A DNA stretch of 32,000 nt from Ruminococcus albus 7 = DSM 20455 (GCF_000179635.2 NC_014833.1:2640001-2672000); one strand, 5' to 3'; numbered from the stretch's first letter, positions 4,192-32,000 are shown. Made by a program: numbers and translations. The notes: generated from the letters alone by a model not told the origin.

Positions 4192-5799
4192 ATGCTGATA
4201 TGCAATAATTGCGGCAAGACAGGTAAACGCGGAAAATTCTGTGTATACTGCGGCGGTGAGCTGACCGAGTTTTTTACGCTGAAGACCGCTGAAAATAATG
4301 ATGCCCCAAAGGGTAAATGCCCACAGTGCGGAAAGGAATTCGCAGGGGGCAAGTTCTGTGTGTTCTGTGGAACAAAGCTTGATATGGGAGATCAGGAGAA
4401 CGCTTCGGCACTTGTTCAGGAGATACCTGCGCAGGAAGTAAGCGAAGTTCCTGTTTCTGAGCCTGTACAGGAAGTCATCGAAGCTCCTGTAGAAGATGTC
4501 GTTCAGGAAATCACCGAAACTCCTGTCGAAGAAACCGTTCAGGAAGTGAACGAAACCACTGTTGAAGAGGTCGTTCAGGAAATCACCGAAACCACTGTTG
4601 AAGAAGCCGTTCAGGAAACAGAACCTATCGAAGCACCTGTACCTGATGTATCATCTGAGGATAACGGCTTTAAATGCAGCGTATGCGGAAAGCTTCACAG
4701 CAAGGGAAAATTCTGCACAGTATGCGGAGGTGCTCTTGTACCTGTTGACAGCGGATCTGACAAAAGCGCTGTTCCTTCACCTGCGGCATCAGCTGCTGTT
4801 ACGCTGAAATGCGCTAAATGCGGCAAAGTTCATAGCGGCGGAAAGTTCTGTACCGCTTGCGGAGGTGAGCTTGTAGCTGCCGATGAAGCAGCTGATACAT
4901 CAACAAAGGAAGAAACTGCTGCGCCTTCACTTATATGCGAAGTATGCGGAAAGCCCCATGAAAAGGGCAAGTTCTGTACCGCTTGCGGAGGTAAGCTGAT
5001 AAACGCAAATGCTGCAAATCAGACCGATTCGACACCTGAGCCTGCACCGTCTGTTATACCAACACCGGTATCTGCGTCAACGGCAGAAACTTCTGCACCC
5101 GTAACTCAGGTTGCTGGCAAGCTTGTTTGCAAGGAGTGCGGAAAAGCGCATGAGAAAGGCAAATTCTGCACCGCCTGCGGAGGACAGCTCATTCCTGCCG
5201 ATGATACCCCTGCGGCACCTGAAAGTGCTCCTGTTGCGGAATGGCTGAAATGTTCGGTATGCGGTAAGCTTCATGACAAGGGCAAATTCTGCACATCATG
5301 CGGAGGTCAGCTTGTATCTGCAAGTGCGGCAGCTGACACGGTTTCGGCTATACCCACCCCTGTTACACCTGTATCATCGGTGATACCTACACCTGTATCC
5401 GCTCCCCTGCCGAATACATCAACAGCGCCAATATCTGCACCTCTCCCTGCAAGCACTGAAACATCGGGCAAACTGGTATGCAAAGTGTGCGGCAAGATAC
5501 TCGACAAAGGCAAGTTCTGCACTGCCTGCGGCGGTGAGCTGGTTCCTATGGAAAGTCAGACGGTGAGCGCTCCTATTGCAGAAAACAGCAGTCTTGTATG
5601 CCCTTCCTGCGGCAAGACATTTGAACGCGGCAAATTCTGTACCACCTGCGGCGCTACTCTCGTTCCGCAGACTTCGGCTGCAGCTCCCGTCAATGACGGA
5701 AAACTGCACTGCGTACAGTGCGGCAAGATATTTGACCACGGCAAGTTCTGCACATCATGCGGAGGTCAACTTGTTACTTCGGATAAGCTGAATGTGTGA
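4192..5799 (+). CDS. Poly-zinc-ribbon protein (10 tandem CxxC...CxxC zinc-ribbon units separated by low-complexity linkers)
   Basis: AGGAGG (4180-4185) precedes the ATG at 4192. The 535-aa product has ten units of the form C-x2-CGK-x4-GKFC-x2-CG-x-L, for example KCSVCGKLHSKGKFCTVCGGALVP and VCKECGKAHEKGKFCTACGGQLIP. Linkers are rich in Pro/Ala/Ser/Thr/Val/Glu. There is no signal peptide or TM segment. Confidence 0.85.
   Translation: MLICNNCGKTGKRGKFCVYCGGELTEFFTLKTAENNDAPKGKCPQCGKEFAGGKFCVFCGTKLDMGDQENASALVQEIPAQEVSEVPVSEPVQEVIEAPVEDVVQEITETPVEETVQEVNETTVEEVVQEITETTVEEAVQETEPIEAPVPDVSSEDNGFKCSVCGKLHSKGKFCTVCGGALVPVDSGSDKSAVPSPAASAAVTLKCAKCGKVHSGGKFCTACGGELVAADEAADTSTKEETAAPSLICEVCGKPHEKGKFCTACGGKLINANAANQTDSTPEPAPSVIPTPVSASTAETSAPVTQVAGKLVCKECGKAHEKGKFCTACGGQLIPADDTPAAPESAPVAEWLKCSVCGKLHDKGKFCTSCGGQLVSASAAADTVSAIPTPVTPVSSVIPTPVSAPLPNTSTAPISAPLPASTETSGKLVCKVCGKILDKGKFCTACGGELVPMESQTVSAPIAENSSLVCPSCGKTFERGKFCTTCGATLVPQTSAAAPVNDGKLHCVQCGKIFDHGKFCTSCGGQLVTSDKLNV
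4465..4644 (+). repeat. In-frame 36-nt (12-aa) tandem repeat, about 5 copies, inside the zinc-ribbon gene
   Basis: Units begin at 4465, 4501, 4537, 4573 and 4609. They encode VQEVIEAPVEDV / VQEITETPVEET / VQEVNETTVEEV / VQEITETTVEEA / VQETEPIEAPV. Confidence 0.85.
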
Positions 5800-5835: not shown

Positions 5836-6300
5836 ATGTCTAACGGACAATGCGGAAAACTCAGCATAGACGGATATGTATTTCAGGTAAAGGACTGCGG
5901 ATCAACAAGGCTCTATATATTCGATAACGACGATGACATCGACGAAGAAAGAGATGTCATAACCAAAACGATATCAATGGATGTATGTTTTGAAAAAGGG
6001 CAGTTCGGTAATGAAGAAGTATCACCAAAGCTTGTTATCAACGAATTTCCCACAGGGAAAGCTGATATCCGAGACATGATCGGCATGGAGTTTGAAGTTA
6101 AAAGCGCCGATGAAGCTTACGAACGTGAAGACACAATGTATATCTTTGAGCACGAACCTCTCATAAACTACAAGCTGAATATCGTTGACATTGAAACCGA
6201 TCTGATGCACGTTAAGATAAGCGGAACTGCTGTTACGGACGGATATTCCACCACTGTGAAGACTGCGGAGTTTGAGGGAGAATTCAGACTTCATATTTAA
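5836..6300 (+). CDS. Hypothetical small acidic cytoplasmic protein, probably co-transcribed with the zinc-ribbon gene
   Basis: 154-aa ORF with GAGG 7 nt upstream of the ATG. It lies 36 nt after the upstream stop with no hairpin between. It is Asp/Glu rich (DNDDDIDEERD). I recognise no family. Confidence 0.6.
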   Translation: MSNGQCGKLSIDGYVFQVKDCGSTRLYIFDNDDDIDEERDVITKTISMDVCFEKGQFGNEEVSPKLVINEFPTGKADIRDMIGMEFEVKSADEAYEREDTMYIFEHEPLINYKLNIVDIETDLMHVKISGTAVTDGYSTTVKTAEFEGEFRLHI

Positions 6301-6321: not shown

Positions 6322-6359
6322 AAAGGCACTTCTGACAAATATATGTCAAAAGTGCCTTT
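6322..6359. terminator. Bidirectional terminator hairpin between convergent units
   Basis: AAAGGCACTTCTGACA (6322-6337) pairs with TGTCAAAAGTGCCTTT (6344-6359) with one mismatch. The hairpin is T-rich on the 3' side of both strands. Confidence 0.75.
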
Positions 6360-6363
6360 GTAT

Positions 6364-7119
6364 TTATTCTTTGCATTTATCAAGAAGTGTATCAACGACA
6401 AATTCCGCAAAATCACCATCGCCTTTAAAAACGCTTCGGTTGGGGTTTTTAAGGAGCGGATCAAGTGCTTCCGGGATAATGGCGTGGTCTGCTTCTTCAA
6501 GCATGGGCAGGTCGATGGTGCTGTCACCTGCGGCGATGATGAATGCACCGCTCTCGCCCTGTGCAAGACGTTTGAGCGCTCTGCCTTTGGTGATATCGGG
6601 CGGCAGGAAGTATATCTTTCTACCCGAGGGCATTACATCAAGTTCGGTGAGTTTTCCGTATCTGTCCATAAATTCGTCCACATATTCCGGCTTTGCACAG
6701 GATATATAAAGGTACATCTCATCGACAATACGCACCACATTCAGCTTCTCGTTGCCGTCAAGCTCGGCGCGGAGCTTTTCCATAAGGGGCATCAGTTCAT
6801 CGGCATAGCGCTTTTCACGGTTGCGCCATTCTTCATTCTGAATGCCATTCTCTATCAGTATTGCACCGTTGGTGGTTATTGCCCTGGTGTAACAGCCTTC
6901 GGGCAGTTGTATCCTTTCAAACTGCGCCACCGAACGTGTCGTAAGCGGGACAAGTTCGACATTTTCGGGTAGAGAGGACAGATGTGAGCAGACTTTTGCG
7001 CTCATGAAACCCTGTTCTGCACCGTTCAGAAGTTCAACGCATATATCGCCCTCACGCCTGTGCTTATAGGAATGTATCAGCGTATTATCGAGGTCACTTG
7101 CAATCAGTATCTTTCTCAT
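6364..7119 (-). CDS. HAD-superfamily phosphatase (Ter-associated biosynthetic module)
   Basis: The ORF track starts at GTG 7158. ATG 7119 (MRKILIASDLDNTLIHS) places the DxDxT motif at the N-terminus and lies 1 nt after the upstream stop (TGAtATG). The motif IV-like sequence is AAGDSTIDLPML. Confidence 0.8.
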   Translation of the reverse strand: MRKILIASDLDNTLIHSYKHRREGDICVELLNGAEQGFMSAKVCSHLSSLPENVELVPLTTRSVAQFERIQLPEGCYTRAITTNGAILIENGIQNEEWRNREKRYADELMPLMEKLRAELDGNEKLNVVRIVDEMYLYISCAKPEYVDEFMDRYGKLTELDVMPSGRKIYFLPPDITKGRALKRLAQGESGAFIIAAGDSTIDLPMLEEADHAIIPEALDPLLKNPNRSVFKGDGDFAEFVVDTLLDKCKE

Positions 7120-7120
7120 A

Positions 7121-8176
7121 TCAGTTATCCGCCATCGCTTTGATAAGACCGCAGGCACGGTAGTGTTTCAGCGGATACTCAACAAGCTCACAGCCCTTTT
7201 CTTCGGCAAGCTGATAAAGATGTCCCAGATGCTCATTATCATCCAGGCTGTGTACCAGCATTTTCCAGGGCATACGGCGCAGCAGCACTCTTGTGGCTTC
7301 ACCTATGCTGGGCTTTACAAGATTGATATCAGCGATACCGTATTCCTGACAGATGGCTTTTACCTCCTCCATAGTATTTTCGGCTGTATCGGCAGCATTA
7401 TCGTTAAGGTCATAGTCATCAAAGCTGAAATGCTCCTCTACTGTATCTATAAACTTATATGTGAGGTCCTTATGGGCAAGCTCCTTGTAGTACACCGCAC
7501 CGTGAAAGTCCTTTTCGCCTATGATATCGCTTCTGAGGAAAGTCCTGCTGAGAAGTCCCGATACTGTGGAATTAAGGCAGCTGCTGGCGATAAGAAAATC
7601 ATCGTGAGTGCCGCATTTTTCAGAGATAAAGGCGGGGTCGGAAAGAACACCCAGCCCGGGACTGACTTCTGGATAATCCTTCATAGCTTCTTCCAGCTGA
7701 CGGGTGATAGCGCCTTTGCCTGTCCAGCCGTCGATGAACTGGATATCCTGAGGTCTGTGTCTTTCAAGGATATAGTTCATGGCATTTTTGTCTATGCCCC
7801 TGCCGCGGATTATAGAGATAGTATAGTGAGCGACATTTATTCCGTACTTTCTGTCCATATAGTGTTTCAGCAGTACACCGATAGAAGTGCCTGCCCTCGC
7901 AAGGGATACAAGCACTGCGTTTTCGCCCTTGTCCTTAAATATCAGCTGACCCAGCCTGCCCACAGCCTCGGCGGTGATGCCGCTGTACATATCAAGGGCT
8001 GTATAGAATGACTTCATGTACTGCTCGGAGGGTTCGTACTCTATTGGCAGCATCTCACAGTAGTGTCTGCCGCCCTGTATAAGCTTTTCTCTCTCCTCGG
8101 TGCTCTGAGGTTTTACCTTACCTGTGATATCTTTGAGAAGAATCGTAACGTCTTCATTTTTATATGAACCAAACAT
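7121..8176 (-). CDS. PRTase_1 / 'cysteine protease StiP'-family protein (divergent phosphoribosyltransferase fold)
   Basis: 351 aa. The N-terminus MFGSYKNEDV, SLARAGTSIGVLLKHY and the degenerate PRPP-loop-like FIDGWTGKGAI match my memory of this Ter-linked family. The start is 3 nt after the upstream stop (TAGcagATG), with AAAGGA as RBS. Confidence 0.6.
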   Translation of the reverse strand: MFGSYKNEDVTILLKDITGKVKPQSTEEREKLIQGGRHYCEMLPIEYEPSEQYMKSFYTALDMYSGITAEAVGRLGQLIFKDKGENAVLVSLARAGTSIGVLLKHYMDRKYGINVAHYTISIIRGRGIDKNAMNYILERHRPQDIQFIDGWTGKGAITRQLEEAMKDYPEVSPGLGVLSDPAFISEKCGTHDDFLIASSCLNSTVSGLLSRTFLRSDIIGEKDFHGAVYYKELAHKDLTYKFIDTVEEHFSFDDYDLNDNAADTAENTMEEVKAICQEYGIADINLVKPSIGEATRVLLRRMPWKMLVHSLDDNEHLGHLYQLAEEKGCELVEYPLKHYRACGLIKAMADN

Positions 8177-8179
8177 CTG

Positions 8180-9331
8180 CTATATCCTTTCAACAATTAT
8201 CTCATTACATCCGTAATGGTGAAACAGTGCTGCAAGCTCATTCATGGCATCAGTATTTTCGGGGGCTGAATCTGTTACGATAAGCACAGAATCGTACTTT
8301 TTAATATCGTACAGGAAAGTCTGCCTGCCTTTTTCGTAGAAGCTTTGCAGCTTATATCCGTTGAATACGGGATAGTCTGCGGCTTCGCATATCCCTATGG
8401 GACTGCGGGTGGTGGCATGGAACTTCACGCTGTTGTATCTGCCGCTGTTTTCAAGCTTTTCAGCTATGATAAGACCTGCATACATACATTCCTCGGTGCC
8501 GATGACGGCTATATCTTTCCCTGTGGGTATCATGGTGCTGTCGGCTGAATCTATCATATCATGCCGTGATAGGATGCTGTCAGCATACTCCCCTATCTTA
8601 ACACCTGTTCTGGGTGTAGTGCAGGGATCAGGTTTAGTAAGGCATGATGCTTTTATCATACTGTCAGCTTCAGGCAGGTCATCTGCACCGCGGATATTGA
8701 ATGCGTTTACTGTATCTGTATAGTCAATATTCTCTATCTTCAAAAGCTGTCTGCAGATCATGCCGCGGCTTTCAAGGCGGCTGATATTCTCATCGCTCAT
8801 GCGGTTTATGACCGAAGCGGCAACTATCCTTTTGTCGCAAAGCTGAGGAAATTCATCCCTCATCTGTTCTATCATATTGATAAGGGTCTTGCCTGTAGAG
8901 AACTCATCGTCCACGAATATGACAGTATCGGTATCACCGAGGGCTGCAGCAAAGCCGTCTGCAGAAAGCTTCTGCTCGGTAGCATGGCTGTGTTCCTCCT
9001 GAAATTCTATCCACCTGCTGACCTCCGTTACTTCCTCACGGGTGGTCTGTATATATGTACAATCCCTGCCCATACATTCAGCAACGGCAGCACCAATGGC
9101 TGTAGCGGTTTCGGCAAAGCCTACCACAAGCTTTGTACCCGGAAATTCCCTGCTCAGTTCTCCGCCAAGAGTGCGCATCATAGCAAGGGATGCCTTGGGA
9201 CTGACAGGTATATGCTTGCCCTGCAGGGGGTCTACCAGAAGATAGGTGCGCTTTGTGTTGTGAAAGCGTTTTGCAAGACGCATAAGCTGTTCCACGGAAT
9301 ATCTTTTTATCGTGGTCTGTTGGTTTTCCAT
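8180..9331 (-). CDS. Phosphoribosyltransferase (PRTase_2-like) fused to a C-terminal TRSP domain
   Basis: 383 aa with AAGGAG as RBS. The classic PRPP-binding loop is VIFVDDEFSTGKT. The C-terminal region contains the eponymous motif HATTRSPIG. Confidence 0.75.
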   Translation of the reverse strand: MENQQTTIKRYSVEQLMRLAKRFHNTKRTYLLVDPLQGKHIPVSPKASLAMMRTLGGELSREFPGTKLVVGFAETATAIGAAVAECMGRDCTYIQTTREEVTEVSRWIEFQEEHSHATEQKLSADGFAAALGDTDTVIFVDDEFSTGKTLINMIEQMRDEFPQLCDKRIVAASVINRMSDENISRLESRGMICRQLLKIENIDYTDTVNAFNIRGADDLPEADSMIKASCLTKPDPCTTPRTGVKIGEYADSILSRHDMIDSADSTMIPTGKDIAVIGTEECMYAGLIIAEKLENSGRYNSVKFHATTRSPIGICEAADYPVFNGYKLQSFYEKGRQTFLYDIKKYDSVLIVTDSAPENTDAMNELAALFHHYGCNEIIVERI

Positions 9332-9423
9332 ATTTTATCTCCTTTGTCCAAATAATATATGCTCAGTAAAATGCCCGTGATATCCTCACAGACATTTTAC
9401 CGTTCACATAGTCATTACCGTAA

Positions 9424-9455
9424 ACACGGCTCGCACAAAAACGTGTGAGCCGTGT
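9424..9455 (-). terminator. Hairpin after the ATPase gene (possible weak terminator or attenuator)
   Basis: 12-13 bp stem cacggctcgcac / gtgtgagccgtg with one G:T pair. On the minus strand it is followed only by TTTAC, a poor U-tract. Confidence 0.35.
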
Positions 9456-9472
9456 ACAGTATGATATTTGTT

Positions 9473-12238
9473 TTATTCAGCCTTAGCAGGTGCAGATACT
9501 GCCTTTCTGATAAGATCGACAGGTATCATGGTGAGTGCCATGAGTACTACTACGATCCAGCCTGAGATACCGAAAGGTACACAGCTGAACATCTTACCCA
9601 GCCACTGGAAAGGTGCCAGGGGGATAAGTGCGCAGTTTACGATCACTGCCTGAACAGCCATAATTGATATCATAGTCTTCAGGAAACCGGGATTAAGGTT
9701 CAGACCCTTGAAGATGCCGAACTTTTCATCTCTAACATTGAAGCCGTTGGCAAGTGCGCTGACAATAAACAGTACGAAGTAGCCTGTCTTCAGTTTCTCG
9801 ATATTACCGCCGAAGAAGTTCTGGCAAAGCAGACCCTTGGAAAGATCCTTCATAACGTCGCCCACGCTGTTGCCTGCTGCAGGGATCAGGAAGTACAGGA
9901 AGCTCATGATAGTCAGCCATGCGCCCATTACACCGATCTGTACAGCCATAGGCTTGCTGATGATGCTCTCATCTCTTCTTCTGGGCTTCTCGCGCATATA
10001 CTTCTCAAATGCGGGCTCATTACCCAGCATGATAGCGCCAAGACCGTCCATAACGAGGTTGACGAACAGCAGGTGTGTTACCTTCAGGGGTTCTTCGATA
10101 CCGAAGAAAGGTCCGAAAGCGGATACCAGTACAGCTGCAACGTTGATCACCAGCTGGAACTTACAGAATTTAAGGATATTGTTGTAGATGGTTCTGCCGT
10201 AGAGGATAGCATCCTTGATGGACTTGAAGTTATCATCGAGGATAACGATCTCGCCTGCTTCCTTGGCAGCTTCGGTACCGCTGCCCATAGCAAAGCCGAC
10301 ATCAGCCTTTTTAAGTGCAGGGCTGTCGTTTACGCCGTCGCCTGTCATACCTACAACGAGGTTCATTTCCTGACAGATCCTTACCATTCTTGACTTATCT
10401 GTAGGAAGCGCTCTTGCAATAACACGGATATCTCTTACGATCTTCTTTACTTCGTCATCAGACATCTTGTTGAGTTCAGCAGAAGAAAGTGCTATATCCT
10501 TGTCACTCTTGATAAGACCTGCATCCTTAGCGATAGCCTTTGCGGTTTCAAGACGGTCACCAGTGATCATAACTACCTGGATGCCTGCCTCCTGTACCTC
10601 GTGGATAGCTTCCTTAGCCTCGGCACGAACATCATCACGTATACCAACAAGACCGATGATAACAACATCATCATTGATCTCATTCTCTACCATAGGCTTT
10701 TCGGAATAACCAAAGCTCAGTACACGCATTGCCTTGTTTGCAAGTGCATCGATCTTTTCGTTCAGCTTGTCCATATCTATATCCTTGATATTGCCGTCGG
10801 CATCAAGGTACTTTGCAGCCTTTGCGAGAAGTCTTTCGGGAGCGCCCTTGTAGAAGGTCTTGCCCAGATTATCTATTCTGGACTGGCTGAACTTGTTAGC
10901 GGAGTTGAAGCCCTGATATGTGGTGACTTCATATTCCTTGTTATCCTTCAGTGCATTGAAATCAGCCTCACCGATGAAGTGCATCAGAGCCTGATCTGTG
11001 AAGTTACCGCCGATGACATTGTGGTTGCCGTCGAACAGTGACTGTGTATTCTTACCGATGGAGATATCCAGCAGTTCTTTGACTTTCTTGCTGTTTGCAA
11101 GCTTGTCTGCGGGAACGACTTCGCCGTCAGCAGTGAAGAATTCAACAACTTCAAGCTTACCCTTTGTGATAGTACCTGTCTTATCGGAGAACAGAACGTT
11201 CAGCGAACCTGCTGTTTCAATACCGACAGCCTTGCGGACAAGTACGTTATGGTCGAGCATCTTGCTGGTGTTCTGCATAAGAACAAGGGAAATCATCAGC
11301 GGCAGACCTTCAGGTACTGCGCAGACAACTATGATGATAGCGATAGATACACCTTCAACAAACTTGCCTATGATATCACCGATAGTCCAGTTCTCTGTTA
11401 TATTGAAGAAAACAGAGGGACCCTTGCCAAGTATCTCACCGGCATCGGTAGTTACATTTGCAAAGAAAATGAAATAGATCATGTAAACGATAGCTATAAC
11501 GATAGCAGAGATATAACCGAATACGGAGATCTGCTTAGCAAGCTTGGCAAGCTTTACCTTCAGAGGTGAATCTGGTTCTTCCTCATTCATCTCCTCAGCC
11601 ATCTTACCCATCATGGTCTTCAGACCGACCTGTCTTACATCGAGGTATCCCTCACCGTCGATACATACAGCACCTCTGAACAGCGAGTGTTCATCAACGA
11701 AGGTATCACCTGTGATATCTGTAGGCATCTCAAAGCCTGCCTCAGCAGCAGTCTTTTTACATTCCTCTGCCTCACCGTTAAGTGCGGAGTTATCGACTTT
11801 GATATTGCCGTGTACAAGCACACCGTCTGCGGGTATTTTGTCACCGGACTGGAGAAGTATCAGGTCACCCTGAACGACATCATCCACTTCGATAACATTG
11901 GTTGCACCGTCACGGATCGCCTTACACTTATCCTTTTCGGAATTTTCCTTGAGCTCGATATACTTCTGGTCGCTGGCTACATTAGTCTTTGCAGAAACAA
12001 ATGCTACTATCAGTACAGCAACTATGGTACCAACAGGCTCATAAGGTTCAGCATAACCTACGAAAGCCATTATTATCATCAGTACTGCTATAGCCAGCAG
12101 TATCTTGATCATAGGGTCACCGAAGGTTTCAAGAAACTCTTTCAGGAACGTCGTGGGCTCAGCCTCAGGTATGGCATTGGAGCCGTTTTTGGCGCGTGAT
12201 TCTTCGACCTGCTTTGAGGTCAAACCTTTAAGATCCAT
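9473..12238 (-). CDS. P2-type (Ca2+-translocating) P-type ATPase
   Basis: The ORF track starts at TTG 12271. ATG 12238 (MDLKGLTSKQVEESR) follows AAGGGAG by 9 nt. Diagnostic motifs are the DKTGT phosphorylation site (FSDKTGTITKG), the TM4 PEGLP (AVPEGLPLMISL), TGDGVNDSPALKKADVGFAMG, and about 10 TM segments. Confidence 0.9.
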   Translation of the reverse strand: MDLKGLTSKQVEESRAKNGSNAIPEAEPTTFLKEFLETFGDPMIKILLAIAVLMIIMAFVGYAEPYEPVGTIVAVLIVAFVSAKTNVASDQKYIELKENSEKDKCKAIRDGATNVIEVDDVVQGDLILLQSGDKIPADGVLVHGNIKVDNSALNGEAEECKKTAAEAGFEMPTDITGDTFVDEHSLFRGAVCIDGEGYLDVRQVGLKTMMGKMAEEMNEEEPDSPLKVKLAKLAKQISVFGYISAIVIAIVYMIYFIFFANVTTDAGEILGKGPSVFFNITENWTIGDIIGKFVEGVSIAIIIVVCAVPEGLPLMISLVLMQNTSKMLDHNVLVRKAVGIETAGSLNVLFSDKTGTITKGKLEVVEFFTADGEVVPADKLANSKKVKELLDISIGKNTQSLFDGNHNVIGGNFTDQALMHFIGEADFNALKDNKEYEVTTYQGFNSANKFSQSRIDNLGKTFYKGAPERLLAKAAKYLDADGNIKDIDMDKLNEKIDALANKAMRVLSFGYSEKPMVENEINDDVVIIGLVGIRDDVRAEAKEAIHEVQEAGIQVVMITGDRLETAKAIAKDAGLIKSDKDIALSSAELNKMSDDEVKKIVRDIRVIARALPTDKSRMVRICQEMNLVVGMTGDGVNDSPALKKADVGFAMGSGTEAAKEAGEIVILDDNFKSIKDAILYGRTIYNNILKFCKFQLVINVAAVLVSAFGPFFGIEEPLKVTHLLFVNLVMDGLGAIMLGNEPAFEKYMREKPRRRDESIISKPMAVQIGVMGAWLTIMSFLYFLIPAAGNSVGDVMKDLSKGLLCQNFFGGNIEKLKTGYFVLFIVSALANGFNVRDEKFGIFKGLNLNPGFLKTMISIMAVQAVIVNCALIPLAPFQWLGKMFSCVPFGISGWIVVVLMALTMIPVDLIRKAVSAPAKAE

Positions 12239-12290
12239 ATAATTATACTCCCTTACAGATTTATCCAACAAAAACGTTAGAAATATTTGT

Positions 12291-12359: not shown

Positions 12360-13010
12360 TCACATACCCGCATATCTCTTGGCGAGATCGGCTATGCTGC
12401 CGTCATTGGTACCCTGACCAATGGCATTGAACTTCCATTCGTTGCCGTGTCTGTATATCTCACCGAATACCATAGCAGTTATGCCGGGGTAGCTCTCGGT
12501 AAGATTGTACCTGCATATCTCATTGTTGTTCCTGCCGTCCACCAGCCTGATGAATGCATTTCTTATCATGCCGAAATGCTGGTTCTTCTGCATAGCATGG
12601 TAGATATTTACAGAAACTACTATCCTGTCATACATCGGAGGCACCTGTGAGAGATCTACAACGATCTGCTCATCATCACCGTCACCCGCACCTGTCAGGT
12701 TATCGCCCATGTGGACTACAGAACCTGTTGCATGACGAAGATTGCCGTAGTATACGATATCGTTCTTGTTTGTGAGTCTGCCGCCCTGAAGGAGGAAAGC
12801 CGAAGCATCGCAGTCGATAGTATCGCCGCCGACACTCTGCATATTTCCGGAGGTGTTTCCGCCGAAGAGGTTGGAGAAGAATCCACCCTGCTTCTGCTGT
12901 GCGGGTGCAGGCGCAGCCTCATCCCAGCCCAGACCGACAATTACCTTTGAAAGTCCTGCACTCTCTTTTGAAAGGCTGACTTTTTGTCCTTTTTGCAGAT
13001 TGATAGACAT
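12360..13010 (-). CDS. terD: TerD-domain protein (Ca2+-binding type), paralog 1
   Basis: N-terminus MSINLQKGQKVSL...VGLGWD. Metal-site motifs are DCDASAF and [21 protein letters not shown]. The C-terminal motif is [11 protein letters not shown]. Confidence 0.9.
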   Translation of the reverse strand: MSINLQKGQKVSLSKESAGLSKVIVGLGWDEAAPAPAQQKQGGFFSNLFGGNTSGNMQSVGGDTIDCDASAFLLQGGRLTNKNDIVYYGNLRHATGSVVHMGDNLTGAGDGDDEQIVVDLSQVPPMYDRIVVSVNIYHAMQKNQHFGMIRNAFIRLVDGRNNNEICRYNLTESYPGITAMVFGEIYRHGNEWKFNAIGQGTNDGSIADLAKRYAGM

Positions 13011-13028: not shown

Positions 13029-13610
13029 TTACTCAGCGTCGATGCCGTAGTGACCGCAAAGTGCAGCCAGACCGCCCTGGAAGCCGCTGCCGATAGCGTT
13101 GAACTTCCACTCGCCGTTATTTCTGTAAAGCTCGCCTACAACGATCGCAGTTTCGATGGAGAAATCCTCACCCAGATCATATCTGATGATCTCCTCACCG
13201 GTTGCCTGATCTACAACACGGATGAAGGAATTGGATACCTGACCGAAGTTCTGTCTTCTGTTGTCAGCATCATATATAGTAACAGTGAAAGCTATCTTGG
13301 AGATATTTTCAGGGATCAGGCTCAGGTCGATCATGATCTGCTCGTCATCGCCGTCGCCGCCGCCTGTCAGGTTATCACCCATGTGCTTAACAGAACCGCT
13401 TGCGTGCTCAAGGTTGCCGTAGAAGATGAATTCCTTCTCGGTGGGGCATCTGCCGCTGTCATCTACCATGAATGCAGCTGTATCCAGGTCGAAATCAGAA
13501 CCTGAATCGAATGCGTTTACGTCCCAGCCCAGACCTACCATGATATTCTTCAGTCCGGGATTACCCTTTGTTAAGCTTACTTTCTGTCCTTTGCTAAGAT
13601 TGATAGGCAT
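13029..13610 (-). CDS. terD: TerD-domain protein (Ca2+-binding type), paralog 2
   Basis: The ORF track starts at 13697, but AGGAGG plus 8 nt precedes ATG 13610 ([13 protein letters not shown]). Motifs are [28 protein letters not shown] and [12 protein letters not shown]. Confidence 0.9.
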
Positions 13611-13696
13611 AATATTGTCCTCCTTATAAATACATTTTGGCTTATTGCCTTTCTTTTGGTTTCGGGCTTTCGCCCATTTATCTCTCCGTATTTGCA

Positions 13697-13775: not shown

Positions 13776-14963
13776 TTACTTTCTCTTGTCGGGAACATCG
13801 TAGTGAGCCTTGAAATCCTGCTTGATAGCTTCAAGTCTTACCTTATCTTCCTGACGCTTCTTCTTAGCCTCAGCCTCGATACCTCTTGTTTCCTCGATAC
13901 CGTTCATGATGGTCTTCCATGTGGTCTCGAGAGTTTCGATCTGTATGGAGCTGCCTGAAGCAAGTCTTGCGGTCATCTTGGACTGCTCAACTGTATTATG
14001 TGCATTCTTTATGAGCATCTCGTTTGTCTTCTGATCGAGTGCTGCCATAGACTCAGCCTGTATCTTCTGACGTTTCAGAAGTATAGCCTGTGCCAGAGCC
14101 TGCTTGAATATAGGCAGGGTGATTATGAATGCGGAGTTTATCTTTCTTACCAGGTTGTAGTTTGAGAACTCCATGGTCTTGAGCATTGGTATGGACTGCA
14201 TAGCAACGTTCTCGGCTGTTCTCAGGTCCTGTACTCTCTGTTCAAGCATCATAAGAGCCTGATTGAGGGACTGGAGCTCGAACTGTATGGAGTTGTCGCC
14301 TGTCTTGGTAAGCTCATCCTGCTTCTGTGCTATGTAAGCTTCCAGCTCACGGCAGCCCTGCTCACCTGCGAGTATATACTTTACAAGGTCGTGATAGAAG
14401 TTAACATTAGCCTCGAACATGGTGTTCAGCTTTCTGTTGGACTGCTTGATCTCATCCTCATATTTTCTCAGCTGAACGTAGATCTTATCCACCTCGTCAC
14501 CCATAGTATGGTACTTTGCGAGTATCTTATCCAGCTGTTTTCTTGCGTTGTTGAAGAACTTCTTGAAGAACGAGGGATCGTCCTTTATCTCATCAACATC
14601 GAACTTAGACATGATATTGGCAAGCACCTGCATAAGCTGGCTGGTCTCGTCGATCTGTGTCATATTCATGCTGTTGAGCACCTGGTCGGAAGCCTTTGCT
14701 ATCTCGTCGGCAGCCTCAGCGCCGAAGGTAACGATAGAATCCAGGTTATCAAGCTCGATAGTGCTTACAAGAGCATCTACCTCGGGTGAATTTACCAGCT
14801 CGGTGGTCATCTGCTCTCTGTCAGCCACGATATCGTACTTTTCTACTACTGAAAGCTCTGTCTCCTGTGCCACAGGAGCAGCAGCTGCGGTAGGTATTGC
14901 GTCTGTTGTCGGTGCTGCTGCAGGTGCGGCCTGGGGAGCAGCCTTTGAAAAATCAAGTCCCAT
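13776..14963 (-). CDS. telA: TelA-family toxic-anion-resistance protein (YceH-like)
   Basis: 395 aa. An Ala/Pro-rich N-terminus is followed by a long helical body resembling TelA/YceH. The start lies 2 nt after the upstream stop, with GAGAGG as RBS inside the upstream gene's end. Confidence 0.8.
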   Translation of the reverse strand: MGLDFSKAAPQAAPAAAPTTDAIPTAAAAPVAQETELSVVEKYDIVADREQMTTELVNSPEVDALVSTIELDNLDSIVTFGAEAADEIAKASDQVLNSMNMTQIDETSQLMQVLANIMSKFDVDEIKDDPSFFKKFFNNARKQLDKILAKYHTMGDEVDKIYVQLRKYEDEIKQSNRKLNTMFEANVNFYHDLVKYILAGEQGCRELEAYIAQKQDELTKTGDNSIQFELQSLNQALMMLEQRVQDLRTAENVAMQSIPMLKTMEFSNYNLVRKINSAFIITLPIFKQALAQAILLKRQKIQAESMAALDQKTNEMLIKNAHNTVEQSKMTARLASGSSIQIETLETTWKTIMNGIEETRGIEAEAKKKRQEDKVRLEAIKQDFKAHYDVPDKRK

Positions 14964-14965
14964 AG

Positions 14966-17251
14966 TTATTTACCTCTCTTAAATATTCTTTCTCGCCATG
15001 AAGTTGGCTGTTTTTTAACTACAAATCTTCTCAGGTCTGGCACGTTAAGGTCGTAGACGTACTGCCCTACCTGATGCTCCTCCATAACGGTGGAGCTGAA
15101 GAATTTCTCAACGCTCTGATACCCTGTGGGCACGAAGAATACTATATCGAAGCCTATAAGGTTCAGGAATGCGATGATTATTGAATCCTCCAATGATATT
15201 ACCCTTTCGCCGGGATTTACATATACCAGCTTGGGGTTTGACTTTGTAAAATCAAAACTCTGTATCTTTCTGACCATATCCATATTCAGGTTCATTATGG
15301 TCGCAACTATCGTATACTCTGTGCCGTTTTCAAAAGTGCCCTTTATCATACGGCTGTCGATGAGCAGCTGAAGCTTATCGAGTATATGATCCTGTATCTC
15401 ATCCCTCAGGAAACCGTAGTGGTAGCTGGGGTGATTCTTTATCACCTGTCTTTGCAGCACTCCCCTTTTCAGGAACTCAGTGCTGTAGCTCTTCATCTCG
15501 TTATAGCTGTCAGAGCTTATATACGGCGCCTGTGTGATAAGGAATGTATCGGGGGTCAACAGCTGCTTGATGCTGCCCCAGTACTGTTCAAGGTCGCCGT
15601 CCTTTACACCTGATACCTTTGCGAAGATGACGGGCATATTCACCACGTCTTCAACTGTACTGAAATTCGGACGGTATTTAAGTTCCTCTTTCCAGAGCAG
15701 TGCTATCTCCTCGTACATTGTCTTTAGTGTTACCGCATTGGCCTTGGAATACTGCCTGTTGCGGTATATACCCGAGTCCTGATACATCAGTGTATCCAGT
15801 TCGCGCTCGGCATGGTACGCAAGGGTAGGCATCTGCAGCTGAGTAGTCTCCGACGGGAATTTCTTCGCATCAAGAGTTTCAGCACAATTCTGCTCAAACA
15901 GCAGCTTATCTTTAAGGCAGCACTTATCAGCGCTAAGGTCGGGCACCAGTATCAGCACATCCACAGGCAGCCTTGCCAGAAATCTCAGGAACATGGCTTC
16001 GTGCTCGTTCTTGCAGCCGCCCATGAGTATGAAGCAGGCAAGTTCGGGCATACGCCAGTTTGTGAAAAGCTGCGCCATATAGCGTTTCAGCCAGCATATC
16101 ATATATACTGCCTTGTTGGTCAGCCTGTTGAGGTTGCTCGGATCAGCCGCACATTCGCCCAGCATGATATCCACAAAGTTTTTCGCCATTACCCTCTGCA
16201 GTTCGATGTTATTGCCGTAGCGTATCTGCAAAGCCAGATCGGCTATCATCTGTTCGGGCTGGTTATAGTATTTTCTCGGCACACCGTTTATCTCGTCCGG
16301 TGACGGCAGAGGTATGCCCTCATCTATCACCACGACTTTTCTGCCGTTCTTTTTAAGTTCAAGCTGCATCTGATAAAGGTCATTGAGGTAAGTCATCTTA
16401 TCCCACACACCGTTTATCCTTGTGAAGATGTTATAATACATCTTCGGGTCAGAACCTCTCTCATTAGCTGGACGCTTGAAATCGGATATATGATCCTCTT
16501 CTCCGCTGAGCCATGCATTTGTGCAGTTAGTGAACCTCGGTTCAGCCCCGTATAGCCTCTGCCTGTTCGCCTGAGCCTGCTGCATCTGACGCATATTGTT
16601 AAGGCTGAAACCGTCGGGGAAAGCCCCCAGTCCTGCGATATCCAGTTTGAAGGAATCGGCTGACTGCGGATCGAGTTTCAGATATTCATCATCACCATGA
16701 TACTGCAAAAGCACCACATCGCATCCTGCGTTTGAAAGTACGGTTATCAGCAGAAGTTCATAGTTGCTGATATCGCCCTCATAGAGTATCTTAGGCACCT
16801 TGCTCTCACCAAGCTGAGAAGTCACGCGCTCAAACTTATAGTAAAGCCAGCACATGAATTTGATATAACAGTTTTTCAGCATATTATCATTTTTACCCTG
16901 AGTTCTCAGCACACTCAGTGTATTGTATATAGAGCCTGCAACGGCACTGCGCTGGTATTCACTCATACGGGGGAGCCATTTTTTCAGCTTCATATTCAGG
17001 AAGTTCAGATCCATTTTGAAATCCATGCCCATCATTTCTTCAAAATAGGCGAGGTTCTTGTTATCGGGATTTGGTATCCTGCCCTCGATGATGACACCGC
17101 CTGTGCGTGCGGCTTCATAATATTTTTTCAAAAATTCCGCTACCTGCTCGTTATATCCGCAGAAGCGGTAAAAATAAACTCCTTTTTCGGGTCTTGCGCT
17201 AAGTTCCTTGAAGTAGTCATCAAGCCCGACCAATCTCTTATGTTCAAACAT
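14966..17251 (-). CDS. Large soluble protein, YceG-like (Ter-associated protein of unknown function)
   Basis: 761 aa, with no TM segment or signal peptide. The call rests mainly on position immediately upstream of, and coupled to, telA, as in B. subtilis yceG-yceH. I recognise no catalytic motif. Confidence 0.45.
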   Translation of the reverse strand: MFEHKRLVGLDDYFKELSARPEKGVYFYRFCGYNEQVAEFLKKYYEAARTGGVIIEGRIPNPDNKNLAYFEEMMGMDFKMDLNFLNMKLKKWLPRMSEYQRSAVAGSIYNTLSVLRTQGKNDNMLKNCYIKFMCWLYYKFERVTSQLGESKVPKILYEGDISNYELLLITVLSNAGCDVVLLQYHGDDEYLKLDPQSADSFKLDIAGLGAFPDGFSLNNMRQMQQAQANRQRLYGAEPRFTNCTNAWLSGEEDHISDFKRPANERGSDPKMYYNIFTRINGVWDKMTYLNDLYQMQLELKKNGRKVVVIDEGIPLPSPDEINGVPRKYYNQPEQMIADLALQIRYGNNIELQRVMAKNFVDIMLGECAADPSNLNRLTNKAVYMICWLKRYMAQLFTNWRMPELACFILMGGCKNEHEAMFLRFLARLPVDVLILVPDLSADKCCLKDKLLFEQNCAETLDAKKFPSETTQLQMPTLAYHAERELDTLMYQDSGIYRNRQYSKANAVTLKTMYEEIALLWKEELKYRPNFSTVEDVVNMPVIFAKVSGVKDGDLEQYWGSIKQLLTPDTFLITQAPYISSDSYNEMKSYSTEFLKRGVLQRQVIKNHPSYHYGFLRDEIQDHILDKLQLLIDSRMIKGTFENGTEYTIVATIMNLNMDMVRKIQSFDFTKSNPKLVYVNPGERVISLEDSIIIAFLNLIGFDIVFFVPTGYQSVEKFFSSTVMEEHQVGQYVYDLNVPDLRRFVVKKQPTSWRERIFKRGK

Positions 17252-29520: not shown

Positions 29521-32000
29521 TTATACTCTGATATCGCCCTCGAATACAGTAACTGCTTCACCTGTCATGTAAACTGTTTCATCAGTGTAGCGTATAGTCA
29601 GGTTGCCGCCGCGGAGCATTACTGTTACTTCCTCGTCCTTGGGACAATAGCCGTTGAGCACTGCTGCTACTACAGCCGCACAAGCACCTGTGCCGCAGGC
29701 AAATGTCTCGCCCGAACCTCTCTCCCATACACGCATTTTCAGGGTATGGCTGTCTATCACCTTGATGAACTCGGTGTTGACTCTCTCGGGGAATATTGGG
29801 TCATGCTCAAACTTAGGACCTATCTTCTCTATCTCCATATCGTCGATATTATTCATAAAGACGATGCAGTGAGGGTTGCCCATAGATACGCAGGTAACGT
29901 TGTGCTTCTCCCCTGCTATATCAACTTCTCTGTTGACTACCATGCCGTTCTCGTCAGCAGGCAGTGTGCAGGGTATCTTCACAGGGTCAAGGATAGCAGC
30001 GCCCATATCAACAGTAGCACCGTTGACCTCGCCGTAATGTCTGCTGAGCTTGACCTTGATGATGCCCGACAGTGTTTCAATGGTCATGAGATCGCGGTCT
30101 ACCAGACCATTATCACGCATGAACTTAGCCACGCATCTGATACCGTTGCCGCACATCTTGCCCTCAGAACCGTCGAGGTTGAACATCCTCATACGTCCGT
30201 CAGCCACCTTGGAACGGCATACCAGTATAACACCGTCGCCGCCGATACCGAAATGTCTGTCGGAAAGGTTCAGCGCAAAGCCCTCGGGGTTATCTATCAT
30301 ACGGTCGAAGCAGTTGAAGTAAACGTAGTCGTTGCCGCAGCCGTGCATCTTGGTGAAGTGCAGAGTGGTCTTTTCGCGGCGCATATTGTTTATATCAACT
30401 ATCTCGGTGTTGCTCTCGTTGTACTTGCTCCTGATGGAGGAAGCGATAGCGTTTGCAGTATCTATAGAAGTCAGGCAGGGTATGTTCCACTCGACTGTCT
30501 TTCTTCTTATCTTAACCGAATCACGGGAAGGTATACGACCCTTTGAAGATGTGGAGATAACGTAGTTTACCTTGCCGCTCTCGATGAGTGTAAGGGTGTT
30601 CTCGTCGCTCTCGTGTATCTTCTTTACAGCCTCAGCCTTGATGCCGTGGTCATGCAGTACTCTTGCAGTACCCTCGGTAGCATATATCTTGAATCCCAGG
30701 TCAGCGAACATCTTAGCTGTCTGAGGTATCTCCTTCTTATCGGAATCACGTACAGTTATGAATACGCCGCCCTTCTGCTCCAGCTTGTAGCCTGCAGCAG
30801 TCAGACCCTTGTACAGGGATTCTTCCAGTGAGCTTGATACTGCCAGTACCTCACCTGTAGACTTCATCTCAGGTCCAAGGTGGTTATCAACGCCTATGAG
30901 CTTTTCAAAGCTGAATACAGGCACCTTTACTGCAACATAAGGCGAATTGGGGTGCAGACCTACACCATAGCCCATATCGCGGAGCTTTTCGCCAAGCATA
31001 GCCTTTGTTGCGAGGTCTACCATAGGTACACCCGTAACCTTGGAGATATAAGGAATGGTTCTGGAAGAACGTGGGTTTACTTCGATAACATACAGCTCGT
31101 CATCATAGATGAGGTACTGGATATTTACAAGACCCTTGGTCTTCAGTGACAGTGCCAGACGCTTTGAGCAGTCAACTACCTTGTCTATAAGTCTGTCAGA
31201 TACGTTCCATGCAGGGTATACTGCTATGGAGTCGCCCGAGTGTATACCTGTTCTCTCGATATGCTCCATAATGCCGGGGATAAGTATCTCCTCACCGTCG
31301 CATATAGCATCTATCTCAAGCTCGATACCCATGAGGTACTTATCTATAAGTACGGGGTTCTCGATGCCCTGGTCGAGTATGATAGCCATATACTCCTTGA
31401 TATCAGCCTCGTTGAAGGCGATTATCATGTTCTGACCGCCCAGCACGTAGGAAGGACGCATGAGCACAGGGTAGCCTATCTTATCGGCAACGTCCAGTGC
31501 TTCCTCACAGGTCATTACTGTGAAGCCCTCGGGACGCTTGATGTGCAGGTCTTCCAGCAGTTCATCAAAACGCTCTCTGTCCTCTGCGGCATCTATGGAA
31601 TCGGGAGGTGTACCCAGTATCTTGACACCGTTCTCGCTCAGATACTTTGTGAGCTTGATAGCGGTCTGTCCGCCGAAGGCTACCACTACGCCCACAGGCT
31701 TCTCAACGCGGATGATGTTCATAACGTCCTCGTTGGTCAGCGGCTCGAAGTACAGTCTGTCAGCTGTATCGAAGTCGGTGGAAACAGTCTCGGGGTTATT
31801 GTTTACGATAACTACGTCATAGCCGTGTTCTTTCAGCGCCCATACGCAGTGTACGGAAGCGTAGTCGAACTCGATGCCCTGACCGATACGTATAGGACCC
31901 GAACCGAAAACTATTACAGTATCCTTCTTCTGCTTCTGCTCAGCGATGAACTCGGCAGCCTCGTCCTCATCATCGTAGGTGGAGTAGAAGTAAGGGGTAT
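29521..32000 (-). CDS. carB: Carbamoyl-phosphate synthase large subunit (5'-truncated by the window edge) fused in frame to diaminopimelate epimerase
   Basis: The frame is open from 32000; my translation of 31723-31998 gives ...GSGPIRIGQGIEFDYASVHCVWALKEHGYDVVIVNNNPETVSTDFDTADRLYFEPLTNEDV. The CarB second ATP-grasp half and the MGS-like domain (GVFITVRDSDKKE...ATEGTARVL) run to ...EIVDINN. With no stop codon the frame continues into MRREKTTLHFTKMHGCGNDYVYF. That begins a complete 287-aa DapF (30384-29521) with both catalytic Cys motifs (MCGNGIRC, FACGTGACA). Confidence 0.85.
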   Translation of the reverse strand, partial: TPYFYSTYDDEDEAAEFIAEQKQKKDTVIVFGSGPIRIGQGIEFDYASVHCVWALKEHGYDVVIVNNNPETVSTDFDTADRLYFEPLTNEDVMNIIRVEKPVGVVVAFGGQTAIKLTKYLSENGVKILGTPPDSIDAAEDRERFDELLEDLHIKRPEGFTVMTCEEALDVADKIGYPVLMRPSYVLGGQNMIIAFNEADIKEYMAIILDQGIENPVLIDKYLMGIELEIDAICDGEEILIPGIMEHIERTGIHSGDSIAVYPAWNVSDRLIDKVVDCSKRLALSLKTKGLVNIQYLIYDDELYVIEVNPRSSRTIPYISKVTGVPMVDLATKAMLGEKLRDMGYGVGLHPNSPYVAVKVPVFSFEKLIGVDNHLGPEMKSTGEVLAVSSSLEESLYKGLTAAGYKLEQKGGVFITVRDSDKKEIPQTAKMFADLGFKIYATEGTARVLHDHGIKAEAVKKIHESDENTLTLIESGKVNYVISTSSKGRIPSRDSVKIRRKTVEWNIPCLTSIDTANAIASSIRSKYNESNTEIVDINNMRREKTTLHFTKMHGCGNDYVYFNCFDRMIDNPEGFALNLSDRHFGIGGDGVILVCRSKVADGRMRMFNLDGSEGKMCGNGIRCVAKFMRDNGLVDRDLMTIETLSGIIKVKLSRHYGEVNGATVDMGAAILDPVKIPCTLPADENGMVVNREVDIAGEKHNVTCVSMGNPHCIVFMNNIDDMEIEKIGPKFEHDPIFPERVNTEFIKVIDSHTLKMRVWERGSGETFACGTGACAAVVAAVLNGYCPKDEEVTVMLRGGNLTIRYTDETVYMTGEAVTVFEGDIRV

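Follow-up and report, generated by a model that had tools for sequence, protein, structure and literature searches.

The ter loci of bacteria confer resistance to tellurite, colicins and phages, and that of Klebsiella contributes to fitness in the gut; the way in which ter clusters work has been unclear for decades. A biosynthetic module of these loci was predicted to make a nucleoside-like metabolite (Anantharaman, Iyer and Aravind, Mol Biosyst 2012, as cited in PMC11994780, PMC7824862 and PMC8115787). According to section 15 of PMC11994780, the module consists of two or five enzymes and always includes a phosphoribosyltransferase (PRTase) and a haloacid dehalogenase (HAD) enzyme; besides these, the five-gene form has another PRTase, an ATP-grasp protein and a TIM-barrel enzyme, and the likely product is given as a pyrimidine-derived ribonucleoside. 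Section 22 of PMC7824862 describes a nucleoside or nucleotide derivative that is made by the PRTases and HAD enzymes and signals a threat. The genes described here lie in Ruminococcus albus 7 = DSM 20455, on a stretch of 32,000 nucleotides (nt) (GCF_000179635.2, NC_014833.1:2640001-2672000) that is called the window below, with positions counted from its first letter. Three adjoining genes on the minus strand encode a protein with PRTase_2 and TRSP domains, a protein with StiP and PELOTA_1 domains, and a HAD-IIB phosphatase. This trio closes a YceG-TelA-TerD-TerD-Ca2+-ATPase cluster, and its reading as a reduced three-gene Ter biosynthetic module, which would make a nucleoside-like molecule, is somewhat favored.

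The three-gene module and its relatives

StiP homologues were found on 2,573 plasmid records, mostly of Klebsiella, Escherichia, Enterobacter and Salmonella. On an IncHI2 plasmid the annotated order is ATP-grasp protein, phosphoribosyltransferase, hypothetical protein of 257 amino acids (aa), 'cysteine protease StiP' and HpcH/HpaI lyase; the module is flanked by terZABCD(E) and vWA on one side and by terW and further vWA, TerD and TerY-C genes on the other. The trio is orthologous to genes of this enterobacterial module, with 39% identity for StiP, 26% for PRTase_2 (E 1e-30) and 25% for the phosphatase, whose counterpart is the 257-aa gene (E 6e-13). Fusion of PRTase_2 to TRSP and of StiP to PELOTA, as well as linkage to TerD, is common to both. 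The gene order differs, being PRTase-StiP-HAD in the window and PRTase-HAD-StiP on the plasmid, and the window is without ATPgrasp_Ter, C-C_Bond_Lyase, TerB, TerC, TerZ/A/E/F, TerW and vWA/TerY, the trio being joined instead to YceG, TelA, two TerD genes and a Ca2+ ATPase. The orthology identifies the trio as the core of the Ter biosynthetic module of Anantharaman, Iyer and Aravind (2012). It is a known kind of system, in which each domain has a Pfam family named for the Ter context. The route proposed in the first-pass annotation, from a base and 5-phosphoribosyl-1-pyrophosphate (PRPP) to a nucleoside monophosphate (NMP) analogue and on to a nucleoside, is a rediscovery of the 2012 prediction and is the leading hypothesis. 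Newly added here are the case against the protease label of StiP, the near-invariance of its loop, its L7Ae-like signature, the origin of TRSP, and the frequencies of fusions and of the reduced form.

Two TerD genes, TelA and YceG were identified by Pfam on the same strand within 8 kb of the trio. The biological role had earlier been described as unknown; the position of the trio within a Ter/TelA/YceG cluster means that its biological setting is not. According to PMC11994780, the yceC-H type cluster of Bacillus and the cluster of B. altitudinis 3W19 have TerD paralogues with YceG and TelA/YceH, as does the window, and strain 3W19 also carries PRTase, StiP and HAD genes beside TerD/YceG/TelA. 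B. altitudinis keeps the HpcH lyase, TerB and TerC, whereas the window is without them and has the Ca2+ ATPase in that position. About 20 related Clostridial loci likewise have a Ca2+ P-type ATPase gene that separates TerD from the module. TerD proteins bind Ca2+, and the association of the ATPase with TerD may be functional. The Flavonifractor/Oscillibacter group has an additional gene, for a rhomboid protease, that parts the ATPase from PRTase_2.

The genes of the trio are closely packed. The PRTase_2/StiP junction reads TAG-CAG-ATG, with a gap of 3 nt, and the StiP/HAD junction reads TGA-T-ATG, with a gap of 1 nt, so that direct reading agrees with the three genes and gaps of 1-3 nt reported at first. 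Three public metagenome contigs with identical StiP have the same gaps and gene calls of 383, 351 and 251 aa. StiP is 94-95% identical to that of Ruminococcus albus AR67 and KH2T6, and the whole neighborhood is syntenic in genomes of the R. albus group.

A survey of species-representative genomes, seeded with StiP and therefore biased to relatives of the window, gave 61 loci, nearly all from Clostridia and other Firmicutes, with one from a Treponema metagenome-assembled genome. The order PRTase_2-StiP-HAD is kept in most of these, usually beside TerD, TelA and YceG. A C-C_Bond_Lyase gene (PF15617, 3.6e-99) stands beside the trio in 25 of the 61 loci and an ATPgrasp_Ter gene (PF15632, 4.1e-37) in 11. 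Module content was tabulated for those 40 loci in which each flank covers at least 3 kb: 17 have the trio without lyase or ATP-grasp, six the trio with the lyase only, five the trio with both, three StiP and HAD without PRTase_2, three PRTase_2 and StiP without a nearby HAD gene, and six other combinations. In nearly all of the 17 loci that have the trio alone, it is preceded by YceG-TelA-TerD(2-3)-Ca2+-ATPase. The absence of both lyase and ATP-grasp from 17/40 loci indicates a recurrent, conserved reduced form and not a local loss. A tblastn search of the 32-kb window with ATPgrasp_Ter and C-C_Bond_Lyase sequences of related loci matched nothing apart from the CarB-like housekeeping ATP-grasp at 29521-31722, in keeping with the early observation that no ligase or lyase accompanies the trio. 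The Clostridial three-gene form is the smallest version with both PRTase-fold proteins and the phosphatase and, being without base-building enzymes, lends itself more readily to reconstitution than the enterobacterial locus with its 14 genes. Four loci of Oscillospiraceae/Huintestinicola have StiP and HAD with no PRTase_2, TerD or TelA within 10 kb, one of them in the order lyase (441 aa)-StiP-HAD; StiP and the phosphatase may be the minimal conserved unit.

The two PRTase-fold proteins are often joined. The StiP family was represented by 122 sequences at 50% identity, taken from 1,059 matches. Of these, 54 are longer than 650 aa, and PRTase_2 is present in 52 of the 54 (~43% of all representatives). 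The Pfam domain order was PRTase_2-TRSP-StiP-PELOTA_1 in 7/7 sampled long proteins that contain PRTase_2, and one fusion of 1,055 aa also bears an N-terminal ATP-grasp. Fusions are found in complete genomes of cultured bacteria, namely Desulfonema limicola (808 aa) and Arthrobacter (877-891 aa). The fusions suggest that the two proteins act together, in a physical or a pathway partnership. In the 61 Clostridia-type loci no true fusion was found; 20 of them show short out-of-frame overlaps, and in Clostridia the genes are separate, either overlapping by a few bases or lying at most 9 nt apart. In the R. albus clade (window 8177-8182; nine loci of the survey) PRTase_2 and StiP are in the same frame, with one stop and one sense codon between them. 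Programmed readthrough at this site was rejected, since the stop varies between TAG, TAA and TGA within the clade. The split looks like a recent gene fission, or a state one mutation away from fusion.

Properties of the three proteins

The canonical PRPP loop and the TRSP tail that had been noticed in the PRTase_2 protein were both found, in the translation and by Pfam. The loop, VIFV-DD-EFS-TGKT, fits the type I pattern of four hydrophobic residues, two acidic residues and x-x-[ST]-G-x-T. Among 86 homologues, D142, E143, T146, G147 and T149 of the loop are each at least 90% conserved, as are an A-E-T-A-T loop and the segment F110-x-E112-x-H114-S115-H116-A117. The AlphaFold2 (AF2) model of the protein has a mean predicted local distance difference test (pLDDT) score of 92.8, and its top Foldseek matches are adenine, xanthine and orotate PRTases (APRT, XPRT and OPRT), with TM-scores on the target of 0.65-0.73. 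Adenine PRTases rank first (E 4e-8, TM up to 0.73), followed by Bacillus xanthine PRTase and then by orotate and uracil PRTases. The model suggests that the N-terminal domain, whose PRPP loop is intact, is a type I PRTase resembling APRT and XPRT, and it is predicted to be an enzyme; the acceptor is not revealed by fold similarity of this kind. Compared with APRT and XPRT (PDB 5y07, 1y0b, 1l1r), the domain shares the fold and the canonical loop at 15-20% identity, but has an extra conserved F-x-EEHSHAT segment, and where those enzymes form homodimers it has a fused, degenerate PRTase-like TRSP domain in the place of the partner.

The TRSP domain aligned with the PRTase_2 N-terminal domain in hhalign over 111 columns, with a probability of 93%, a P value of 2.7e-7 and a score of 47.8; the controls, a reversed and 20 column-shuffled profiles, all scored 19 or less. 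In this alignment LGTEE lies over GFAET and STTRSP over HTTRE, and the PRPP loop is lost in TRSP. In the AF2 model, helices and strands succeed one another in identical order in the two domains. Profile alignment and model together indicate that TRSP is not a new fold but a second, degenerate copy of the catalytic domain, arisen by duplication within the PRTase_2 protein. With TRSP derived from a PRTase, the operon encodes three PRTase-fold domains, of which one is canonical.

The StiP domain has the loop FIDGWTGKGAI at the position of the PRPP loop. This loop had been called degenerate, which is accurate in that the acidic pair is missing, a single Asp standing in its place; it does not show decay. 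Among the 122 representatives the counts are F147 120, D149 122, G150 119, W151 122, T152 107, G153 119, K154 118, G155 121 and I157 115, so that a consensus F-[VI]-D-G-W-T-G-K-G is near-invariant throughout the family, and this near-invariance marks the loop as a family-specific, selected variant and not as a decaying site. Conservation of the acidic pair in homologues had been suggested as a check; the pair is absent from every one of the 122 representatives, in which the single D149 is invariant instead. E46, G96, D129, A132, D149, W151, D180, D193, G207 and D237 are invariant, and a PPi-loop-like, APRT-like SLARAG motif is almost so (R94 in 120/122). In the AF2 model (mean pLDDT 95.9, predicted TM-score (pTM) 0.94) the loop follows the course of a strand (residues 145-151) and then a helix (156-167), at the PRPP-loop position of the fold. 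A fold search against PDB returned type I PRTases as 31 of 31 matches at E <=1e-3 and as nearly all of the top 50. PyrR ranked first, followed by hypoxanthine, guanine and xanthine (6-oxopurine) PRTases, with TM-scores of about 0.5 on the target. Separate structure predictions, which had also been proposed at the outset, thus gave confident models matching type I PRTases for both proteins. Single-sequence searches of PDB with StiP or PRTase_2 gave nothing useful, the family profile and fold comparison being the informative approaches. Since the profile-profile comparison of the PRTase_2 N-terminal domain with the StiP domain was not significant (hhalign probability 5%), the assignment of StiP to the PRTases is drawn from the model and not from sequence. 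No NCBIfam model matches StiP or YceG.

The C-terminal PELOTA_1 domain resembles L7Ae. With a StiP-family profile made from the 122 representatives, L7Ae chains in PDB (archaeal and eukaryotic L7Ae/eL8/Snu13) were matched at E values down to 1.2e-6. The family segment KPGiGEttRvLLRR aligns with KKGtNETtKavER of L7Ae, with GETTR over NETTK and Gly in the place of Asn, and E293 and R296 are invariant among the StiP representatives. The aligned segment of L7Ae is its RNA-contacting helix. From this sequence signature, the PELOTA_1 domain of StiP probably binds RNA. PyrR (PDB 4p86, 1a3c), the pyr mRNA-binding attenuator and uracil PRTase, which is the closest fold neighbor of StiP, likewise combines the PRTase fold with RNA binding, in StiP a predicted property. 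PyrR binds RNA through its PRTase domain and keeps the acidic pair, whereas StiP has the one-Asp loop and a separate L7Ae-like domain. The L7Ae-like domain, taken together with PyrR as the closest neighbor, strengthens an RNA-linked or regulatory view of StiP. The occurrence of StiP and HAD pairs without PRTase_2 indicates that StiP may be a catalyst in its own right that supplies the substrate of the phosphatase, and on this ground catalysis is a more likely role for StiP than regulation alone.

The name of Pfam family PF11202 comes from StiP of Acinetobacter baylyi, whose gene stands amid ter genes and which shows a tellurite phenotype (cited in PMC11994780); the label 'cysteine protease' goes back to Reichert et al. 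2013 (Can J Microbiol 59:726), as cited in PMC11994780 and PMC11179108. The protease assignment of the A. baylyi protein is not mirrored in the family to which the StiP of the window belongs, neither as a family-wide conserved Cys nor in the predicted fold. The best conserved Cys, C200, is present in 76 of the 122 representatives and is otherwise replaced by I, L, A or V, as expected for a buried hydrophobic position and not for a nucleophile. H117 and H225 are conserved without a Cys partner, so the Cys-His dyad that had been named as evidence for a genuine protease is not found in the homologues. No peptidase family of Pfam matches StiP even at E <=10, and no protease fold is present among the top 50 structural matches in PDB. 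The doubt about the label voiced in the first-pass annotation is thus substantiated, in that neither the sequence nor the predicted fold lends it support. The label has been widely propagated and already leads authors to leave the gene out of the pathway (PMC11994780, section 15). Seven loci of the Flavonifractor group have, downstream of HAD, a protein with a partial YceG and a trypsin-like serine peptidase; a genuine protease, distinct from StiP, accompanies some of these clusters.

The phosphatase begins with MRKILIASDLDNTL, in which DLDNT is residues 9-13 and the DxDxT motif is at 7081-7095. The longest open reading frame (ORF) reaches a GTG at 7158, and the ATG at 7119 is the start in independent public gene calls. 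Placement in HAD-IIB is by NCBIfam and Pfam, at scores below most curated cut-offs. HAD motifs I-IV (DxDxT, S/T, K and GDxxxD) are all present, the Thr of motif II lying within LTTRS, and D9, D11, T13, K178, D199 and D203 are each kept in 45/49 aligned homologues, in accordance with the DxDxT phosphatase described earlier. Among proteins of solved structure, the nearest in sequence is a trehalose-6-phosphate phosphatase (E 4.5e-6). Kinship with sugar-phosphate phosphatases, as judged from sequence, is compatible with a ribose-5-phosphate ester as substrate and is not specific for it.

Proposed route and alternative readings

In the proposed route, the PRTase_2 N-terminal domain would join PRPP to a nucleobase-like acceptor that is already available, the product being a ribonucleoside 5'-monophosphate analogue. 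The TRSP tail would be a dead PRTase copy and is probably a built-in dimer partner. Type I PRTases are usually dimers, which suggests that either the TRSP copy or StiP may stand in for the second subunit. StiP would form one complex with PRTase_2 as a second PRTase-fold enzyme with a one-Asp loop, and would either carry out a second phosphoribosyl step or bind the nucleotide product, while its L7Ae-like domain would tie its state to an RNA. The HAD-IIB enzyme would then strip the 5'-phosphate to leave a nucleoside-like small molecule, which may be used by TerD/TelA in the response to membrane stress and in phage resistance. The ATP-grasp protein and C-C lyase of the five-gene form would be optional decorating or base-building enzymes; with both absent, the acceptor in the module of the window would have to be a common cellular metabolite. 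Similar logic is seen in the CobT/CobC (alpha-ribazole) route and in the nucleoside-antibiotic routes with PRPP and HAD or Nudix enzymes, in which ribosyl-5-phosphate is placed on a base and the 5'-phosphate is then removed; these use known bases and have no second PRTase-fold or L7Ae-like component.

The nucleoside-making route is supported by the conservation of the PRPP loop, of the PPi-loop-like motifs and of the HAD residues, and by models that match PRTases. Domain content and close packing of the trio, its orthology to the IncHI2 module, the gene order kept in most of the 61 loci, the PRTase_2-StiP fusions, the StiP and HAD pairs and the published prediction also speak for it. Several points weigh against it. 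The acidic pair typical of PRTases is lacking in StiP throughout the family. The nearest known functions of the phosphatase are those of trehalose-6-phosphate and mannosyl-3-phosphoglycerate phosphatases and not of known 5'-nucleotidases. TerB and/or TerC are usual, though not obligatory, companions of the module (PMC11994780, PMC9240799), and neither gave a Pfam match in window ORFs of at least 120 aa. StiP of A. baylyi was reported to have protease activity, with tellurite and morphology phenotypes (Reichert et al. 2013, via PMC11994780 and PMC11179108). Hairpins between the ATPase and PRTase_2 genes (see below) put co-transcription of the trio with the ter genes in question. Function of the module is still called predicted in PMC8115787 (2021) and PMC11994780 (2025), and no experimentally identified product was found in the literature up to 2025. 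A more far-reaching version holds that the three PRTase-fold domains form a complex, that the one-Asp site of StiP has unprecedented chemistry (either a second transfer or a reaction on RNA bound through the L7Ae-like domain), and that the nucleoside is a second messenger for a TerD/Ca2+-ATPase membrane response. This version is speculative and rather improbable; if true, it would be a bacterial counterpart of nucleotide-gated calcium signaling. The analysis yields residues that can be tested and a likely, predicted RNA-binding surface.

Of the alternatives, the one that fares best makes the PRTase-fold proteins sensors or regulators and not biosynthetic enzymes: StiP would, as PyrR does, bind a ligand (a nucleotide or PRPP, in its altered site) and also an RNA, for example a K-turn of an mRNA or of the ribosome, by way of the L7Ae-like domain, PRTase_2-TRSP would be a pseudo-dimeric sensor like PurR, and the HAD enzyme would reset a phosphorylated signal. 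PyrR proteins as the best structural neighbors of StiP, the presence of PurR bound to guanosine tetraphosphate (ppGpp) among the fold matches of both models, the retained GETTR signature with invariant E293 and R296, and the lack of a canonical acidic pair in StiP all point in this direction. It is nevertheless unlikely. The catalytic PRPP loop of PRTase_2 is complete and strongly conserved, StiP has invariant acidic residues (E46, D129, D149, D180, D193, D237) of the kind typical of catalysis or metal binding, and obligate pairing with a catalytically intact phosphatase, elsewhere joined by ATP-grasp and lyase, suits a pathway better; nor was a conserved leader RNA found by Rfam or by comparison with relatives.

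A defense or toxin effector was also considered, in which stress or phage attack would cause the PRPP or purine pool to be drained or corrupted, followed by dephosphorylation, with no signal made; such action has been described for the PRTase toxin ShosT and for PRTase effectors of retrons. PRTase_2 has a weak match to the PRTase effector of PADLOC retron type III-A (E 6.4e-6), Ter loci are tied to phage resistance (as stated in PMC7824862 and PMC8115787), and PRTase toxins that disrupt purine metabolism exist, for example ShosT (as described in PMC11961720). The other proteins of the trio have no PADLOC match, neither an antitoxin nor a sensor partner of the usual kind was found, the module lies within a conserved chromosomal stress cluster and not in a defense island, and homologues are rare in phages (3 records); the effector is accordingly quite improbable. 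No known defense system was assigned, the retron effector match being the only one given by PADLOC. A still less probable alternative is that StiP, guided by its L7Ae-like domain, phosphoribosylates RNA or protein with PRPP and that the HAD enzyme trims the phosphate. It would account for a PRTase fold fused to an RNA-binding-type domain with intact signature and for StiP and HAD as a minimal pair. Against it, we know of no type I PRTase that modifies RNA, no RNA partner was found by Rfam or upstream-region comparison, and the frequent small-molecule enzymes (ATP-grasp amidoligase, C-C lyase) point to a metabolite. That StiP is a cysteine protease for cell morphology and tellurite resistance, with the PRTase and HAD proteins functionally separate, is hardly credible, since the A. 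baylyi report, which favors it, is opposed by the absence of a conserved Cys and of any peptidase match, by a confident model that matches PRTases only, and by the fusion of StiP to PRTase_2 in 52/122 representatives.

Organization of the cluster and neighboring genes

The genes of the cluster and the domains and motifs of the two PRTase-fold proteins are given in Table 1. They form a single run on the minus strand, from YceG through TelA, the two TerD genes and the Ca2+ ATPase to the trio, which follows the ATPase after a gap of 141 nt.

Table 1. Coordinates of the trio, its domains and the preceding genes in the window
Feature	Position	Strand	Description
PRTase_2 + TRSP protein	8180-9331	minus	383 aa; Pfam PRTase_2 (PF15609) 1.8e-47, TRSP (PF12500) 6.3e-21
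Canonical PRPP-binding loop VIFVDDEFSTGKT	8885-8923	minus	Residues 137-149, from the translation
TRSP domain	8183-8659	minus	Residues ~225-383; TTRSP motif 8399-8413; TRSP is T307-P311
StiP + PELOTA_1 protein	7121-8176	minus	351 aa; Pfam StiP (PF11202) 9.6e-102, PELOTA_1 (PF15608) 1.8e-29
StiP (formerly PRTase_1) domain	7427-8176	minus	Residues 1-250; predicted type I PRTase fold, atypical loop
Loop FIDGWTGKGAI	7706-7738	minus	Residues 147-157; PRPP-loop position, one Asp for the acidic pair
PELOTA_1 domain	7139-7375	minus	Residues 268-346; L7Ae/eL8/Snu13-like
HAD-IIB (Cof/TPP-like) phosphatase	6364-7119	minus	251 aa; Pfam Hydrolase_3 6.4e-8 and NCBIfam HAD-IIB matches
PMCA-type Ca2+-translocating P-type ATPase	9473-12271	minus	NCBIfam TIGR01517 8.3e-158, above cut-off; directly upstream of the module
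TerD paralogue	12360-13010	minus	Pfam TerD; scores of the pair 2.4e-73 and 5.2e-84
TerD paralogue	13029-13613	minus	Pfam TerD; scores of the pair 2.4e-73 and 5.2e-84
TelA	13776-14963	minus	Pfam TelA 5.9e-98
YceG_bac protein	14966-17251	minus	Pfam YceG_bac 2.5e-126; with TelA the first genes of the cluster

For the cluster, the strongest resemblance to a promoter is seen at 17388-17359, with a match at 11/12 positions. The intergenic region between the ATPase and PRTase_2 (9332-9472, minus strand) contains two strong tandem hairpins followed by a ribosome-binding site, AAAGGAG; it folds with a minimum free energy of -60.2 kcal/mol (z -10 against shuffles), and no sigma-70-like promoter site was found in it on the minus strand. 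The hairpins are only partly common to the closest R. albus relatives, in which the gap is longer. In the closest R. albus genomes PRTase_2 appears to be longer at its N-terminus than in the window, by about 35 aa. A conserved leader or K-turn RNA upstream of PRTase_2 was considered and dropped, as the hairpin region is not conserved beyond the closest relatives; a Rfam scan of the whole window gave no RNA family. Downstream of the trio, a hairpin at 6322-6359 with the stems AAAGGCACTTTTGACA and TGTCAGAAGTGCCTTT, read directly, lies between the HAD gene and a convergent ORF (5836-6300), and from its sequence is probably a terminator for both directions at the end of the module.

The CarB-like ORF at 29521-31722 (minus strand) joins the C-terminal half of CarB, the large subunit of carbamoyl-phosphate synthase (CPSase_L_D2 and MGS), to a full diaminopimelate epimerase (DapF). 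It starts in the middle of the pre-ATP-grasp domain, and may be a frameshift, a carB gene in two parts or a fusion of unusual kind. An SPFH/Band-7 gene at 152-1612 shows synteny with the cluster among R. albus genomes, and in the Treponema locus a NfeD-like gene and an SPFH gene (7296-8716 of that locus) are directly upstream of PRTase_2; the SPFH association may be a membrane-microdomain link or a coincidence. The convergent ORF at 5836-6300 (plus strand) encodes 154 aa without a family match; some relatives in R. albus have it too (66% identity), and it was not called on the contigs with identical StiP. It is adjoined by a gene at 4192-5799 (plus strand) for a 535-aa protein made up of many double zinc-ribbon (DZR) repeats.

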